A program made the translations under genes and the position numbers. This document shows, piece after piece, positions 3,872 to 50,518 of a stretch of DNA of 64,000 nucleotides (within the stretch, counting starts at the first letter, position 1; the number at the start of each line of letters is the position of its first letter). The stretch is taken from positions 17,535 to 81,534 of the forward strand of contig DAIOFM010000005.1 of the NCBI GenBank assembly GCA_036745755.1, given 5' to 3'. Below the pieces are notes generated by a model, which was not told where the DNA came from, ran no database searches, and worked only from the letters and a program-made list of their open reading frames with translations. Source of the stretch: Spirochaetota bacterium (GTDB taxonomy: Bacteria > Spirochaetota > UBA4802 > UBA5550).

Positions 3872-5572
3872 ATGGGTGATCTTATAAAAAGAATATTTGA
3901 TCAGGTAAAAGAGATCTATGGCAAGCTTGACCGCACTAAAAGGATAATTGTCGGTGTCGTTCTTGTGTTGGTGCTTGTCTCTTTCGGCGTACTCTTTACC
4001 GTGTCGAGTAATGAGCCCAATGTGATGCTTTTTGCTGAACTTTCTTCCGATGATTTCGGCTCGATAACCAAAAAACTTGATGAAATGGGCTACAGGTATG
4101 AAACATCCGGGTCCACATCTGTTTTTGTCAAGCCGAAAGACAGGGCTCTTATTGTAACTAAACTTGCCCAGGAAAACATGCTCCCCAAGGGGGTTCCCGG
4201 ATTCAAACTTTTTGATATTTCAAACTGGACGCAGACGGACAAGGAACTTGATGTAAAATTTATGCGCGCCCTTCGCGGTGAGATTCAGAGGCATATAGAA
4301 TCACTGCAGAATATCAATAAAGCTGATGTTGAAATAGCGATGTCGGAGGAGAGCCTTTATTCCGACAAAAACACACCTTATACAGCAGCTGTTACTGTAC
4401 ATCTTGCTCCCGGATACGATAAACTTTCAACAAAAGAGATTAAAGGTATAGTCTACCTTGTTTCACGGGCTGTCGGCCCCAGGCTTAAGCCTGAAAATGT
4501 TACTGTAACTGACAATTCCGGTAAAATAATATCCGATTTTGACGATGATTTTGAAAACGAGAAAAAAGAATATACCATAATCGAATTCAGACGAAAAATA
4601 GAGGAACAGGCCAGGGTAAGGCTTCTGAAAGAGATTCGTGAAGGCCTGCAGAGAATCTACTCCTCCGACAGGATACAGATTGTCCGCCTGAATATGGATT
4701 TTAACTGGGATAAAATCTCGGAAGAACAGACCGAACATACTCCTGTTACAATGATTCCCGATGATCCAAGGACTCCTTATTCTGAAAGAAAGGTAAAGGA
4801 TTCTCTTATCGTATCAGAAAAGACTACAAAAGAAAATTTCAAGGGGCACGGCTGGAATCCTGAGGGCCCTGCCGGTACTGAAGGCAATACGCCTCCCGGG
4901 TATAAGGCAAGTGATGACCAGTTTGCACAGTATGACAAACAGGAAGATATTAAAAATCATGCTATAAATAAAACTGTGCGGAATATTGCACGTGATCCTT
5001 ATGATATAACGAGAGTAACAGTGGCAATTGCGATTGACGGGCAGCAGGATCTTCCCAGGTTCCCTGACGGTGAATACGACCTTGATCCTGCAAAAAAACC
5101 GGTTCAGATCGCCCTTAAAGAGGATGAGCTAAAGAAAGCAGAGAATATAGTTAAAAAAGCGATTAATTTTGATGATGCCAGGGGTGATCAGGTCGCAGTT
5201 GAGAACATAATGTTTGACAGGACTGCTTACTGGAATTCAATAAGGGAAGAATACAGGAGAAAAGAGCAGATAAAAATGCTCCTCCTGGCGTCACTTATAG
5301 GTGTCGTGGCCCTTTTTGTCGGATTTATACTTTTCAGGGCCATACAGAAAGAACTGGAGAGAAGGAGAAGGGCAAGGGAAGAGGCGCTTGCACTGGAACA
5401 GCAGCGTATGCGTGAAGCCGCTCTCAAGGCTGCAGAAGAAGAGGGTATTGATGTGGAACTCTCACTGGAAGAGCGTGCAAGGCTTGAACTTCAGCAGAGC
5501 GCCCTGCAGCTTGCCAAGGAGCGTCCGGATGATGTGGCCCAGCTTCTCAGAACATGGCTTGCTGAAGAATAG
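3872..5572 (+). CDS. fliF: Flagellar M-ring protein FliF
   Basis: N-terminal TM, LPKGVPGFKLFDISNWTQTD, RALRGEI, TAAVTVHL, second TM near the C-terminus, AQLLRTWLAEE end. Confidence 0.95.
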   Translation: MGDLIKRIFDQVKEIYGKLDRTKRIIVGVVLVLVLVSFGVLFTVSSNEPNVMLFAELSSDDFGSITKKLDEMGYRYETSGSTSVFVKPKDRALIVTKLAQENMLPKGVPGFKLFDISNWTQTDKELDVKFMRALRGEIQRHIESLQNINKADVEIAMSEESLYSDKNTPYTAAVTVHLAPGYDKLSTKEIKGIVYLVSRAVGPRLKPENVTVTDNSGKIISDFDDDFENEKKEYTIIEFRRKIEEQARVRLLKEIREGLQRIYSSDRIQIVRLNMDFNWDKISEEQTEHTPVTMIPDDPRTPYSERKVKDSLIVSEKTTKENFKGHGWNPEGPAGTEGNTPPGYKASDDQFAQYDKQEDIKNHAINKTVRNIARDPYDITRVTVAIAIDGQQDLPRFPDGEYDLDPAKKPVQIALKEDELKKAENIVKKAINFDDARGDQVAVENIMFDRTAYWNSIREEYRRKEQIKMLLLASLIGVVALFVGFILFRAIQKELERRRRAREEALALEQQRMREAALKAAEEEGIDVELSLEERARLELQQSALQLAKERPDDVAQLLRTWLAEE

Positions 5573-6695: not shown

Positions 6696-7614
6696 ACTTG
6701 TATTTAAACCGGGTGAAGTACATCATGCAACTGTTGTTAAACAGGTGGATCTCCCTGCCAAGTACCAGAAAAACCTCATAGATGCAGAAGAATATCATGA
6801 ATTTGAGATGGATGAGGACGGGAATCCCATAGATGTTTACCAGGGCCCTTCAATTGAGGAGATGGAGGCCGAGCTTGAGCGTTATCGCCGTGAAACAGAG
6901 GAAGAAGTCAGGCAGATGCTTGAGCAGGCGAGAGCAAGGGCTGCAAAGATTGAGGAAGAGGGCAAGTCTGCGGCATTCACCGAACTTGAAAAAGTAAGAG
7001 AACAGATCAAAATAGAAAAAGAGAGACATAGATCAGAAGCTGAGCGTGAAATAGAAAAAAGCAAATTTGAAGCCGAAAAGATAATACTTGAAGCAGAAAA
7101 AAAAGTTTCAGAAATTGAACATGACGCATATATGAAAGGGCATGAGGCCGGTCGTGAAGAGGGTTATAAAGAGGGCCAGGCAGAGGTCATGAGGCTTATT
7201 GACCGACTCGGGACTATTGTATCAACAGCAGTGGATATACGGGATGATATAATCAAATCTTCAGAGAAACTTATGACTGAAATGATTCTAATGATTGCCC
7301 GTAAAGTAATCAAGGATGAGATAGTTGAACGACGTGAAGTTGTAATAAATAATATCAAGGAATCTATAAAACGTGTTAAAGACCGTGACAGGATCGACAT
7401 AAGGGTCAATTTTGCCGACCTTGATATGACAACAGCGCATAAAGATGAACTTATTAAGATGATGGAATCACTTAAGAAGGTTAATATATATGAAGATTCC
7501 AGAGTTGAAAGAGGCGGATGTATAATTGAAACTGACGTTGGTGCCATTGATGCAAGGATATCGACTCAGCTTGATGCGATAGAAGAGGCGATAAGAAACA
7601 CAAGTACTCTCTAA
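6688..7614 (+). CDS. fliH: Flagellar export protein FliH
   Basis: Likely TTG start at 6688 after GAGGAGG (ORF track starts at 6673); AxxxGxxxG repeats (AYMKGHEAGREEGYKEG), GGCIIETDVGAIDARI. Confidence 0.92.
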   Translation: MSKLVFKPGEVHHATVVKQVDLPAKYQKNLIDAEEYHEFEMDEDGNPIDVYQGPSIEEMEAELERYRRETEEEVRQMLEQARARAAKIEEEGKSAAFTELEKVREQIKIEKERHRSEAEREIEKSKFEAEKIILEAEKKVSEIEHDAYMKGHEAGREEGYKEGQAEVMRLIDRLGTIVSTAVDIRDDIIKSSEKLMTEMILMIARKVIKDEIVERREVVINNIKESIKRVKDRDRIDIRVNFADLDMTTAHKDELIKMMESLKKVNIYEDSRVERGGCIIETDVGAIDARISTQLDAIEEAIRNTSTL

Positions 7615-15739: not shown

Positions 15740-16210
15740 TTATTTGAGGAGGGAGTCTATATCTTTTGTCCAGTATTTACCGCTTGCATTCTCTTCGTGA
15801 AAATAAATAAGGAATTTATGAATTCTCTTACATAGCTCCGGAGTTATATGGTGCTCAATTTTACAGGCCTCGGCTTCGGCCTTTTCTTTTGGAAGTTTTA
15901 ACACATTTGAAAAAAAATCGGCAAGACAGATATGTCTGCTTAAAACCCGTTCAGAGACTATGCTTCCTGTTTTGGTAAGTTCAATATAACCGTATTTTTC
16001 ATACTCTATCAGCCCCAGTTCTTTAAGCTTATTAAGTGCTGATGTAACACTTGGCATTTTGATTTTTAGTTCAGCAGCAATATCCCTGACCCTGACAACA
16101 CGATTGTTTTGGGAAAGAACAGCTATGGTTTCGATATAATCTTCCATATGGGGGGAGAGTTCTGTATCACCATAAAGCTCATCAATATCTATTGAATAAA
16201 TATCTAACAT
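15740..16210 (-). CDS. DtxR/MntR family metal-dependent transcriptional regulator
   Basis: MEDYIETI, VRVRDIAAELKIKMPSVT, YEKYGYIELT, RHICL, EACKIEHHI. Confidence 0.92.
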   Translation of the reverse strand: MLDIYSIDIDELYGDTELSPHMEDYIETIAVLSQNNRVVRVRDIAAELKIKMPSVTSALNKLKELGLIEYEKYGYIELTKTGSIVSERVLSRHICLADFFSNVLKLPKEKAEAEACKIEHHITPELCKRIHKFLIYFHEENASGKYWTKDIDSLLK

Positions 16211-34215: not shown

Positions 34216-35066
34216 AAGTTGTTTTTATTAATTGTATATTCGTAGAGTTTTCTGTTTTTGGCAAGTATGTCATCCACTTCGGAAATAGTGTTACCTATGG
34301 AGGTCCGTGCATCAATAAATGCCTGTTTCTGGTGTTTGGCTATTCCCTGAATTTCATCCGGGTTTTTACCGTTTACAAAATCATCAACAGCGGATACATG
34401 TTTTTTTATATTGTTGTAGACTCTTTTGATATTGGCCGACATCTCGTAGAAAAAAATAAATTTCATTATTTTTTCTTTTTTAAGTCCTCCCATTGAGTCT
34501 ATTATATTTTTCCCCTCTGTGTCTACTTTTGCCTGGTAATAGGTTATTGACCTTGGGTAGTTTACAAGTTCCCTGTAATAACTTTCTAGTTTATCAAGCT
34601 GTTGAATGCAGTCTATCTCTATATGTCGGGAAAGATCGTCAAGAGCTGTTGACTCAACTTTATTCTCTCTTGTAAATACGTCAGAGAGATCAATGTTCAT
34701 CATTATTGCAGCAAGGCGTTCCCTGTGAACTTCTGAATCGGAAATGACGCTTTCAATGAAAACATCAGGTTCAAAAAAGATTTTTTCAGATTCAGTTTCA
34801 AAATCACGCTTTTCTTTTAATTCATTCTGAACGTTCTGGTTCTGCTCAATGTCTCTAAGTACCATGATCTTTCTCTGATACTGCAGCATCTCGCTGCTGT
34901 GGATTCTTTCAAGTTTAATAATTTCGACTTTACGTGTGTCACGGTTGTATTTTAAGCCGAACATATTACCTATGGGGTCTATATAACGATTGTTTAAATC
35001 ATATACTGATATTTTCGACGTATCAATTTCAGAAACGTCTGCTATTCTTATAATTCTTTTTTTCAT
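34212..35066 (-). CDS. Conserved hypothetical cytoplasmic protein
   Basis: 284-aa ORF; N-terminal SVYDLNNRYID..GNMFGLKYNR segment recalls a Leptospira-type hypothetical family (not verified). Confidence 0.6.
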   Translation of the reverse strand: MKKRIIRIADVSEIDTSKISVYDLNNRYIDPIGNMFGLKYNRDTRKVEIIKLERIHSSEMLQYQRKIMVLRDIEQNQNVQNELKEKRDFETESEKIFFEPDVFIESVISDSEVHRERLAAIMMNIDLSDVFTRENKVESTALDDLSRHIEIDCIQQLDKLESYYRELVNYPRSITYYQAKVDTEGKNIIDSMGGLKKEKIMKFIFFYEMSANIKRVYNNIKKHVSAVDDFVNGKNPDEIQGIAKHQKQAFIDARTSIGNTISEVDDILAKNRKLYEYTINKNNF

Positions 35067-35455
35067 TTTAAGATGGTGCTGAAGTCGTAATTTAATAAAG
35101 GAGCGTCAAATTCAACAGCTATATAGTTTTCTCCCTTTGAGGCATACGAGGAAAACTTTTGTGCAATTTCACTCGGATTGTTTCTTAACAGGCCGGTTCT
35201 GACAATCCTGCCGTTTAATGTTAATTTTTCTTTATTTAACTGAAATTTCATGATTATAGGGAGCCCGGGGGAGACCTTTGAATTGCTTATCAGGAAAATA
35301 CCGCCACAACTGATATCTATAATCAGACCTTTACCTTTTTCTGAGATATGAGTTTCCGGATCAATTTCATCTGGATTACCTTCAAAAAATTCAAAGCTGG
35401 ATTTTATTGAACATGAAAATCGTTTGTATTTTCTTTTATCATTATTTTGCGTCAT
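35063..35455 (-). CDS. PilZ domain c-di-GMP-binding protein
   Basis: RxxxR (RKYKR) and DxSxxG (DISCGG) motifs both intact. Confidence 0.85.
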   Translation of the reverse strand: MTQNNDKRKYKRFSCSIKSSFEFFEGNPDEIDPETHISEKGKGLIIDISCGGIFLISNSKVSPGLPIIMKFQLNKEKLTLNGRIVRTGLLRNNPSEIAQKFSSYASKGENYIAVEFDAPLLNYDFSTILK

Positions 35456-35628
35456 GTTAATCCCCGGATTAATTAAGAATATATTGCGTTTATATTTAAG
35501 CTATAATACTGCGTTAAGTATATTTTAATGTCAAGACTTGTTTGTATAAATATAATTATTACCTTAAAGATAATCAATTACCGGAAGTTAAATGTATACC
35601 TAATTATCAATTTTGTAACAGTTTTTGT

Positions 35629-35661
35629 ATAAGTATTCAGTAATTTTTACTGAATACTTAT
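35629..35661. repeat. Perfect 15-bp AT-rich inverted repeat
   Basis: ATAAGTATTCAGTAA-TTT-TTACTGAATACTTAT. Confidence 0.85.
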
Positions 35662-35755
35662 TTTAGTATAAAAATTAAAAATTATATGCTCCCGCCGCTT
35701 TCGGCGACGGCGGTAAGAAAATATTTTATCTGAAATAAGTTAAAGAATAAACACT
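35647..35755. repeat. Dispersed intergenic element, copy A
   Basis: About 75% identical by manual alignment to 49391..49500, same orientation; GC hairpin core CCGCCGCTTTCGGCGACGGCGG. Confidence 0.75.
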
Positions 35756-35881
35756 GATAAGTATTATAAAGTAGAAAATTTAACATAATTGTTATTTAAT
35801 AATACGTATGTTCATGATTTCAGCAATAATTTTAGTTTACAGTATCTGGATGAAAACTAAAATGGTGACATAATTTTATAA

Positions 35882-37534
<1,653 letters not shown>

Positions 37535-41243: not shown

Positions 41244-41492
41244 ACTATTATTAATTATCCTGATTTGATTAAATTGATTGCTGCCAAAGTGCTGAGGTGT
41301 TTTAGTAATGCATGTTCCGGCAGTATCTTGGGAATATAAAATTGCATGTTAATCAGTGTCAATAATAATTCTTGAATATATCTATTCTTTTTTGGCGTTC
41401 TTTTTTTTAAACTTCTGGTATTTTAATTGAATATATTTAATATCGTTATTATTTAGTATTCACAATTAATCAAAATTCTTAAAGGATAATAT

Positions 41493-48278: not shown

Positions 48279-49340
48279 TTATTCTTTGATATTGTAAAAA
48301 AAGCCGAAAAGGGCTGATTTTTCACCTGTAACTGTTGAATTCAATCCGGCACCGGACCATGTTTCAAATTTTACTTCATCACGGTGCTTTTCCCCTTTAT
48401 CGTCAGTAACAATAAGATAAAATTTAGTTTCTGTACTGATGTTTCTGAAACTGTCCGGGTTTTTTTTCAGATTTTCCTCTTTTGTTTTAAAAGAGAGATT
48501 TTTATCACTGCCTTTGAATTCAAGAGGGGGTGCTTTTACCCATTTCATCATCCTGTATTTATATCTTGTCATATAGACCGGTACGTCCCTGTATTTTGTT
48601 TCCCTGTATGTCTCGTTTTTTGTTTCATAAACCGGTCTGTTTTCGTATATATCCTTAAAATATCCGTTACCCAGGTCTTTAACTCCCACCTTGACTTTTT
48701 TTTCACCTACCTTTACCTGAACCTGGCGTGTTTTTGTTTCATAGCCGTCAGGTACTTTGTCATAATGATGGACAGCCCTGTATTGACCGAGTTTGACAGC
48801 TCCAGCAGGCAGTGACCAGTCTTCCTCTGTTACCAGTTTATATTCATCAAAAGATATTCTGGCTGTATAATCAAATCCTGTAACTTTTACCGGTATTTCT
48901 GATGTGATCATGGAAAGCCCGAACATTACCAGAACAGCTAAAAATAAACCGGCGACAGTATAAAGTATTTTTTTTCCGGTTCCTGATTTTGCGGCTGTTT
49001 CCGGTACAGCAGGAGTATCAGGGAGCTCCGTACTGTCAAAACGAATTTCCCTTTCCTTCAGTGAAACATCCCCTCCTGCCTGATCTCTTTTATTGCCGCA
49101 GCTGACGCAGAACTGATCAAAAGCATTGTTCTGGGTTGAACAATAGGAACATTTCCAGTCAGCTCCTGCCTCAGCTTCCTTCAGCAGGAGTTCATCAGTC
49201 ACTTCTTCTGCATCTTCAGGAAGATAGAATTTGACGTCATCAGGACGGGGGGAACCGCACGAACCGCAATATGAATCAGGTCCCCTGTTCCCTCTCCTTC
49301 CACATACACCGCAGTCCCATTTTCCCTCTCTAATAGCCAT
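48279..49340 (-). CDS. Membrane protein with two N-terminal RanBP2-type zinc fingers
   Basis: WDCGVC...CGSC and WKCSYC...CVSC, then one TM and a C-terminal extracytoplasmic domain; GGAG RBS. Confidence 0.8.
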   Translation of the reverse strand: MAIREGKWDCGVCGRRGNRGPDSYCGSCGSPRPDDVKFYLPEDAEEVTDELLLKEAEAGADWKCSYCSTQNNAFDQFCVSCGNKRDQAGGDVSLKEREIRFDSTELPDTPAVPETAAKSGTGKKILYTVAGLFLAVLVMFGLSMITSEIPVKVTGFDYTARISFDEYKLVTEEDWSLPAGAVKLGQYRAVHHYDKVPDGYETKTRQVQVKVGEKKVKVGVKDLGNGYFKDIYENRPVYETKNETYRETKYRDVPVYMTRYKYRMMKWVKAPPLEFKGSDKNLSFKTKEENLKKNPDSFRNISTETKFYLIVTDDKGEKHRDEVKFETWSGAGLNSTVTGEKSALFGFFYNIKE

Positions 49341-49390
49341 GGTTATTCTCCTTATGGGGTAATAAAATTTCTAAATTTAATCAGTTATAA

Positions 49391-49500
49391 TTCCTGAATA
49401 TATATTTTAGTGTAAAAAGTAAAATTATATACTGCCATCGCCCTCGGCGGTGAAGGTAATAGGGCATTTTTTACCTGAAATAAATTAAGGAATAAATATT
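49391..49500. repeat. Dispersed intergenic element, copy B
   Basis: Homologous to 35647..35755; core CCATCGCCCTCGGCGGTGAAGG. Confidence 0.75.
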
Positions 49501-49615
49501 AAAATTCAATATATTTAATAACTTTTAAAGGCAAATAAAAAGTTTTTCAACAATAATAACTTGATTTTTTATTTTCCGTTTAACAATAAAAAATAAAAAT
49601 TATACGGATGTAATT

Positions 49616-50518
49616 ATGAAACCGCGAAAAGGTCTTAAGCTTAAAGAACGTTATTTTTCAATAGAAACCCCTCCTGAACTGAACAACATTACCCTTTTCA
49701 GGTATGCCGGTACCTTTTTCGGGCTGTGGAATATTGACGGCTGTTTTATTCTTGTTGATAATATTTTTATAGACAGCGGCAATCCCAATTACAGCAGAAA
49801 GGACATGCTTGAATATGTCAGGACACTGGATAAAAACAGGGACTGGATTATTCTTAATACCCATATGCATGAGGATCATGTAGGAGGGAACAGGCTTATT
49901 CAGAATGAACTTGGCGCTGAAATATATTCTCCGGAGTCTGTTGAGGATTTCTCATTTGTATCCCTTATGATGGATTTATTCTGGGGCAGGCCTGAAATGT
50001 TCACGTATAAGATGCTAGATCGTAATGTTTTTACAACTGATATGGGGAGAACGATTGAAGTTATTCCCGCTCCGGGGCATTCCCCGAATCATACGGTATA
50101 CCGCATAATGCCGGATAATATAATCTATTCCGGTGACGCGATTCCCGTCCCTTCCAGGAAGAGGTATGTAACTCTTGGGGAAAATTATATGTCTGAACTT
50201 GACAGTCTGAAAAAACTGCTCCCTTATGCTGAAAAAGGTACCCGCTTTATATCCGCTCATCATGGGATAGTTAAAGACAGTGTAAAGCTGATAAAAGAAA
50301 GGATATCAGGTATGACTGATGTTGTTTCAGGGGTGGAGGAGCTTGTAAGCAGGGGGATAACTGATAAAGCCGAAATAGGTATGGAGGTTTTCGGTAAACA
50401 GGATCTGCTTTACCGGAAGCTCGGGAATCAGATCCGGTGCAGGGAGGACTGGGCTATTGAGTCGATCCTTGAGGGTCTTGGTTGCGGCCTGGAGATACAG
50501 GCAGAAAAGTGTAATTAA
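49616..50518 (+). CDS. Metallo-beta-lactamase-fold hydrolase
   Basis: IDSG, THMHEDH (HxHxDH), PGHSPNH, SGDA, AHH. Confidence 0.9.
   Translation: MKPRKGLKLKERYFSIETPPELNNITLFRYAGTFFGLWNIDGCFILVDNIFIDSGNPNYSRKDMLEYVRTLDKNRDWIILNTHMHEDHVGGNRLIQNELGAEIYSPESVEDFSFVSLMMDLFWGRPEMFTYKMLDRNVFTTDMGRTIEVIPAPGHSPNHTVYRIMPDNIIYSGDAIPVPSRKRYVTLGENYMSELDSLKKLLPYAEKGTRFISAHHGIVKDSVKLIKERISGMTDVVSGVEELVSRGITDKAEIGMEVFGKQDLLYRKLGNQIRCREDWAIESILEGLGCGLEIQAEKCN

Follow-up and report, generated by a model that had tools for sequence, protein, structure and literature searches.

A putative MITE family of about 120 bp dispersed in the intergenic DNA of uncultured digester spirochetes

Two intergenic stretches, here called copies A and B, which lie in the same orientation in the 64-kb window (the whole stretch of 64,000 nucleotides that was analyzed), are very probably copies of a MITE (non-autonomous class II transposon) that presumably relies on a DDE transposase acting in trans; this assignment is read from the sequences of the copies, their ends and their flanks. 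They belong to a family of small elements with dozens of dispersed copies across the window species and related uncultured Spirochaetota. The preliminary description of this DNA had offered a non-autonomous mobile element as one of its readings, and the multiple copies, sharp ends, terminal inverted repeats and target-site duplications (TSDs) presented below indeed bear this out. The assignment would explain a conserved intergenic motif of about 120 bp in these digester spirochetes and guards against its being miscalled as an sRNA, a terminator or a regulatory site, while a profile with defined ends and TSD length can be used to mask the element, to type strains by their insertion polymorphisms and to search for the transposase.

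Copies A and B and their transposon signatures

Copy A is a unit of 119 bp (35638–35756, plus strand; CAGT...ACTG) that scored 96.5 bits (E 4e-28) with the family profile in nhmmer, its limits having been set from the family alignment. The same 9-mer, ATAAGTATT, stands on either side of it as left and right TSD (35629–35637 and 35757–35765; 9/9 identical). Copy B, of 120 bp (49382–49501, plus strand; 108.3 bits, E 1e-31), begins with CAGT and ends in ATTA, a right tip mutated from ACTG, and its left and right TSDs, AAATTTAAT (49373–49381) and AAATTCAAT (49502–49510), agree at 8/9 positions. A GC-rich apical hairpin was recognized in both by sequence reading and folding, namely CCCGCCGCTTTCGGCGACGGCGG in copy A (35691–35713, plus strand) and CCATCGCCCTCGGCGGTGAAGG in copy B (49435–49456, plus strand). 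The preliminary description had thus placed both copies correctly, but had drawn their limits too narrowly, the real units reaching further out.

When the refined units were aligned globally, 90 identities were counted in 121 columns (74.4%), in keeping with the identity of about 75% first reported for two copies on the same strand. The alignment score was 57, while the controls, which comprised shuffles and 272 other AT-rich 120-mers from the window, scored -10.7 +/- 6 with a maximum of 17. The pair therefore stands about 11 standard deviations above the AT-rich background, and the early caveat that the likeness might be no better than that of shuffled AT-rich DNA falls away.

As had been described, both copies lie between divergently transcribed genes. 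Copy A is located between a PilZ-domain gene (35063–35455, minus strand) and pyrG (35897–37534, plus strand), and copy B between the gene of a RanBP-type zinc-ribbon protein (48279–49340, minus strand) and that of an MBL-fold hydrolase (49616–50518, plus strand), after which an Rrf2 regulator gene comes next. No ORF of at least 40 amino acids overlaps either copy. Flank motifs of 25 and 28 nt, searched with up to three mismatches, matched in the window solely at A and B, with zero matches expected by chance, and motif and profile searches together disclosed no further copy in the 64 kb. Copy A was identical in seven other contigs of the same species, and the gene-to-gene spacing around copy B was constant across all same-species contigs spanning the site; A and B are thus fixed in the sampled population of the window species, and no within-species polymorphism was seen at either site in these contigs. 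The species itself was met in several anaerobic-digester metagenomes at 99.9–100% identity, and the closest homologs of its pyrG, labeled Spirochaetota, are at most 88% identical. A local peculiarity of copy A is a separate 15-pair hairpin (35629–35661), followed by TTTAGTAT, to which its left TSD and its mutated left end (CAGTAATTTTTACTGAATAC) both contribute; it was flagged as terminator-like by the scanner and is absent from the other copies.

In the family as a whole, the element is about 120 bp long, non-coding, and approximately 75–80% A+T outside its GC-rich center, with the termini CAGT...ACTG. The family end sequence may be given as CAGTAATAATTCC... with an inverted partner, and the consensus ends, CAGTAATAATTCCT and the reverse complement of AGGAATAAATACTG, form imperfect inverted repeats that match at 12/14 positions by eye. 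Among 29 copies, CAGTA/TACTG and ATTCCT/AGGAAT were paired in 93% of the cells. Of the features by which MITEs are recognized, four were clearly present here: terminal inverted repeats, a small size (about 50–800 bp) without coding capacity, many dispersed copies with unrelated flanks, and a TSD of fixed length, in this case 9 bp. Of the 33 full-length copies, 19 have flanking 9-mers that agree at 8/9 positions or more, seven of them perfectly; when the left and right flanks of different copies were paired as a control, only 0.76% reached 8/9. The duplicated 9-mers are all different, 91% A+T, and usually have A as the first base and T as the last. The other 14 full-length copies have no clear TSD, which the age of the copies or recombination between them might explain.

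Duplication of the target by a staggered cut is an established signature of DDE-type transposases, and the variable, AT-rich 9-bp duplications thus point to a staggered cut by such an enzyme. A mobility of a different kind had also been proposed, namely that the unit is a REP/BIME-like element or an IS200/IS605-derived PATE, the hairpin of which is recognized and moved by an HUH/Y1 transposase (RAYT or TnpA). The intergenic location, the multiplicity of copies and the GC-rich hairpin would all suit this origin, but variable 9-bp TSDs flank most copies and terminal inverted repeats are present, and the two together argue against REP/RAYT as well as IS200/IS605; REPs and IS200/IS605 ends are not known to duplicate the target or to carry terminal inverted repeats. 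The unit is also 120 bp rather than 20–40 bp long, and its least conserved part is the hairpin, the opposite of what would be expected if a transposase recognized it. The annotated parts of the window contained neither a tnpA, tnpB or RAYT gene nor any other gene for a transposase, those of the Y1 type included. Thus, neither the properties of a REP/BIME with RAYT (palindromes of 20–40 nt, no TSD, a Y1 gene) nor those of an IS200/IS605-derived PATE (subterminal hairpins without terminal inverted repeats, a fixed tetra- or pentanucleotide target, no TSD) were seen in the element, and the proposed HUH mechanism, contradicted by the duplications and the inverted ends, is assigned an exceedingly low probability.

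In the preferred reading of a MITE, a DDE-type transposase would make a 9-bp staggered cut at an AT-rich intergenic target; the enzyme would come in trans from an autonomous IS whose ends match those of the element, and from that IS the element may have arisen by internal deletion or foldback. The hairpin would then be a property of the element itself, stemming from its palindromic origin and possibly upheld by intrastrand templated correction. Neither the window, nor the 84 loci (~0.75 Mb), nor the plasmid, phage and viral collections yielded a parent IS or a transposase whose ends match, and the Pfam annotations, which covered approximately 1–60 kb of the window, included no transposase. An all-against-all megablast of the loci returned no repeated segment of at least 400 bp with internal ends, and a fuzzy search for solo termini found none next to an ORF; these searches yielded solely mini-derivatives, nested copies and a promoter block at thiC that resembles a terminal inverted repeat, all of which are described below. 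As a lead and not a result, the parent may be sought in the ISM1 group of ISNCY, which we take to have CAGT ends and 8–9-bp duplications. In the other families with 9-bp duplications (the IS903 group of IS5, the IS10 group of IS4, and ISAs1), the tips differ.

Copies of the family and occupancy of the two sites

The preliminary description had itself stated that an absence of further copies, together with a score no better than that of shuffled DNA, would count against its reading; in fact, the nhmmer family profile identified 43 distinct sites in the collected sequence (~0.75 Mb), of which 33 were full length. All 43 are in MAGs of uncultured Spirochaetota or 'Leptospirales' and in anaerobic-digester contigs, and the family loci from outside the window had no overlap with it. 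When an exact two-arm pattern was run against a single genome for each species, its six hits all fell in one MAG ('uncultured Leptospirales bacterium' CAZVFJ01) that alone has seven intact copies and a decayed one, whereas a 27-nt right-end pattern matched 36 metagenome stretches. The full-length copies measure 114–123 bp, and the variants 92–131 bp. The similarity has sharp limits in all copies, with (T)CAGT on the left and ACTG(A) on the right, and the flanks are unrelated.

A few apparent matches elsewhere were discarded. The loose two-arm pattern gave 16 matches in viral contigs, all of which lacked the GC hairpin and were therefore regarded as chance; the left-end pattern gave four, which were chance matches inside coding sequence, and the right-end pattern gave none in the same contigs. 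In the plasmid and phage collections, blastn with the consensus as query retrieved nothing.

No copy was found inside a large ORF. The gene contexts were divergent in 12 cases, tandem-sense in nine, tandem-antisense in four and convergent in two, such that the copies favor AT-rich spacers on the promoter side of genes, with no significant bias in orientation. It is to be noted that a seeming orientation bias of 25 'same' to 7 'opposite' was an artefact that arose because divergent spacers had been counted; the tandem contexts gave 9 to 4.

Occupancy of the two sites appears to vary among relatives. At site A, i.e., the PilZ-pyrG spacer, decayed copies were present in two sister species with pyrG 88% identical to that of the window (locus L067, 44.6 bits; locus L069 of the CAZVFJ MAG, 21.9 bits), and a barely recognizable remnant in locus L071. 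In locus L070 (pyrG 84% identical) there is no copy, but a single ATAAGTTAT beside a conserved GAAAATTTTACAT block, at the position where the window has ATAAGTATT-element-ATAAGTATT. At site B, the spacer of locus L082 is 136 nt long and has no element, as compared to 275 nt in the window, and locus L083 contains a heavily decayed copy. These comparisons of filled and empty sites are between species, the intergenic DNA of which is too diverged for base-exact alignment, and global alignment of a reconstructed empty site A with L070 was ambiguous in such AT-rich, diverged DNA. The left junctions at site A lie 13, 13, 45 and 102 nt from the conserved block, differing by species, a pattern that either one old insertion followed by indels or repeated insertions into a favored spacer could have produced. 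In the sister-species spacers, the profile scored 45 bits, 22 bits or found no match, so that the window copies, at 96.5 and 108 bits, are much the better preserved. The perfect TSD of copy A and the good preservation of both copies favor the interpretation that A and B are fairly recent, lineage-specific insertions, as judged from their sequences; some selection or gene conversion may also be acting on the window copies.

The spacer that houses copy A has further features. Three blocks in it, at 35528–35537, 35774–35786 and 35830–35863 (ATGTCAAGAC, GAAAATTTAACAT and TTTTTAGTTTACA...TAAAATG, respectively), are conserved across species, while the rest of the intergenic DNA is scrambled. The third block forms a sigma-70-like pyrG promoter, TTTACA-16-TAAAAT (35836–35863).

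The hairpin, its rival readings and its derivatives

The whole unit is an imperfect palindrome in which the complementarity of the arms runs inward to a GC stem-loop cap. Each AT-rich arm is an inverted repeat of the other, and the ~120 bp therefore fold as one long hairpin; the preliminary description had been right about the GC hairpin core, but had confined the structure to it. The predicted folds are strong, at -31.5 kcal/mol (z -4.3) for copy A and -34.7 kcal/mol (z -5.1) for copy B. RNAalifold, run on a MAFFT alignment of 29 copies, missed the long hairpin because of gap placement, and the structure of one member was used instead; with this structure, 89% of 1230 cells over 44 pairs (29 copies) were paired, a figure that is biased upward by the use of a single member.

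A pairing of this extent raises the possibility of a multicopy structured ncRNA or of a cis-regulatory RNA or DNA cassette, in which the hairpin would be under selection and the dispersal secondary. Besides the strong folds of A and B, the plus strand folds better than the minus strand on average (-39.0 versus -36.1 kcal/mol) and is the more stable in 23 of 30 copies, both A and B face a downstream gene, and both are better kept than their sister-species counterparts. Compensatory changes, one of which had been claimed for the core, are indeed present in the form of 15 cells with double changes, against 7.3 in shuffles, and none of 500 shuffles reached 15. The covariation is nonetheless modest: double changes were confined to 5 of the 44 pairs, a number not above that in the shuffles, and the double changes are concentrated in one pair of the core, where C-G became U-A in seven copies, the GC core being the most variable as well as the most covarying part of the family. 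The strand asymmetry, for its part, comes from one master sequence behind all copies, so that the copies are not independent observations of it.

Most of the pairing is simply inherited from the palindromic master copy, and intrastrand templated correction of quasi-palindromes can keep such stems paired without selection. There were no Rfam matches at the gathering threshold in the window, and the sub-threshold matches returned for both copies in E-value mode were noise alone (e.g., snoR136, which scored 20.5 bits where the threshold is 43); thus, the prospect that a known Rfam family would account for the copies was not realized. The sense and antisense tandem contexts, 9 and 4, do not differ significantly, and the distance from the element to the downstream start codon ranges from 19 to 372 nt. 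Furthermore, the best sigma-70-like promoter of pyrG, which is conserved in relatives, is downstream of copy A, so that this copy need not be in the pyrG transcript. With copies in both orientations, no Rfam match and pairing mostly inherited from a palindromic master, the idea of an ncRNA or regulatory cassette gave way, and we consider it very unlikely.

It could also be argued that the copies are intrinsic terminators or regulator-binding sites, independently evolved or duplicated, that merely look alike. A T-rich sequence does occur some bases after the GC hairpin, and in a subfamily of five loci (L055, L065, L032, L035 and L057) a perfect extended stem, AAAATTATATA-GC core-TATATAATTTTT, replaces the asymmetric TAATAGAGCA segment, with a T run immediately behind it on both strands, a shape like that of a bidirectional intrinsic terminator. 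The scan, however, flagged neither core as a terminator, the neighbors of both are divergent and leave nothing to terminate, and the likeness spans 50 nt on each side of the hairpin and has exact ends with TSDs, all of which reduces the probability of this explanation to a negligible one.

In the MITE reading, the copies may nevertheless influence their surroundings. Possible effects of A and B on the divergent neighbors include a change in promoter spacing, the formation of a cruciform or hairpin, and RNA structure if the element is read through. A stronger proposition is that some copies, A and B included, have been domesticated, in which case the hairpin between divergent promoters might serve as a cruciform or insulator, as a leader-RNA structure, or as a landing pad for small elements. 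It is suggested by the near-intact state of A and B (TSDs of 9/9 and 8/9, full hairpin) as compared to the decayed sister copies, and by the GC core, which changes in sequence yet keeps its pairing and is swapped for a larger palindrome in some copies; we regard domestication as unlikely.

A variety of derivatives accompany the full-length copies. One copy lacks the GC core and another has a shortened arm, and two minis of 42–43 bp (L050:8734–8776 and L049:2406–2447) keep the tips alone (CAGTAAT...ATTACTG). At L034:8977–9128, L051:100–245 and L061:989–1184 (also in L062), the core has been swapped base-exactly for a second palindromic element of 150–200 nt with the ends GGGGCTGTCCCA...TGGGACAGCCCC; the insert of L051 is the reverse complement of that of L034, and this element was not found outside MITE copies in the collected sequence and is absent from the window. 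A third small element (~230 nt, L061:~4470–4700), with the inverted ends TAGCGGTTTACGA...TCGCAAACCGCTA, sits just inside the left arm of a MITE copy, which shows that several MITE-like families nest into one another. In the CAZVFJ MAG, two copies of the same orientation (L028:7009–7130 and 7244–7364) are placed 113 nt apart, one with a perfect TSD (TGAGATTTT) and the other without. Overall, the deletions, the nesting and the tandem pair are the debris expected from a decaying transposon family.

The block at thiC mentioned above is at 41360–41380 of the window (CAATAATAATTCTTGAATATA), and equals the left terminus of the MITE at 19/21 positions. It is kept in L067, L069, L070 and L071, between thiC and a methyltransferase gene, and on the minus strand it offers a TTGACA hexamer, resembling a -35 element, upstream of thiC. 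The block may derive from a MITE end that was domesticated long ago, or the likeness may be a coincidence. The 5' region of thiC (41244–41492) contains sequence blocks conserved across species, in which Rfam detected no TPP or other riboswitch even at E<=1. In one relative, the same thiC-methyltransferase spacer holds a GC-rich, near-perfect palindrome (GCCCCCGCACCCCCGGAGGGGGCAAGCATTCATTGCCCCCTCCGGGGGTGCGGGGGC; L071:~15800–15870) that bears no relation to this element family.

Comparison with known elements

The preliminary description had called the element undescribed, which probably holds for the family itself; the kind of element is well known, and the clade has already been noted for such elements. 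With the REP/BIME (RAYT) sequences and the IS200/IS605-derived PATEs, it has in common that it is intergenic, repeated, and provided with a GC-rich hairpin, but those are much shorter units, mobilized by HUH enzymes, that have neither TSDs nor terminal inverted repeats.

In architecture, the nearest documented analog is MITEAba12 of Acinetobacter and other Moraxellaceae, whose parent is ISAba12 of the IS5 family. It offers an experimental precedent, being an AT-rich element of 113 bp with 16-bp terminal inverted repeats and 9-bp TSDs that is moved by ISAba12 (PMC6382973). The two resemble each other in their small size, high A+T content and lack of coding capacity, in the short and imperfect inverted repeats at their termini, in the 9-bp TSDs and in being multicopy in some genomes, and both would depend on a transposase supplied in trans, which for the spirochete element we infer. 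They differ in that their sequences are unrelated, and in that the spirochete element, which belongs to an uncultured host, has CAGT termini and folds back on itself over nearly its full length, with a GC-rich hairpin at the apex.

Similar in shape are the Correia elements of Neisseria, ERIC/IRU of enterobacteria and RUP of pneumococcus, which are intergenic imperfect palindromes of ~100–150 bp, present in tens to hundreds of copies, that form long hairpins when transcribed, often lie beside promoters, and can nest or cluster (PMC10969869). The resemblance of the spirochete element to Correia, ERIC and RUP is in shape, their sequences being unrelated. Correia, ERIC and RUP duplicate the dinucleotide TA and not 9 bp, and their effects through promoters, IHF sites, RNase III and RNase E have been shown experimentally.

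Lastly, in a census of 183,232 genomes, Leptospirales stood out as the order richest in MITEs, at a median of 154 per genome, and genomes of Spirochaetes were found to have a low coding density (PMC11602168). The digester-MAG family is of the same element class and comes from the same or a neighboring taxon; it is to be noted, though, that the census covered sequenced genomes of named genera, whereas the present family is from digester MAGs. The family thus adds an uncultured lineage to the picture of MITE-rich, Leptospirales-like genomes, rather than a new kind of biology.
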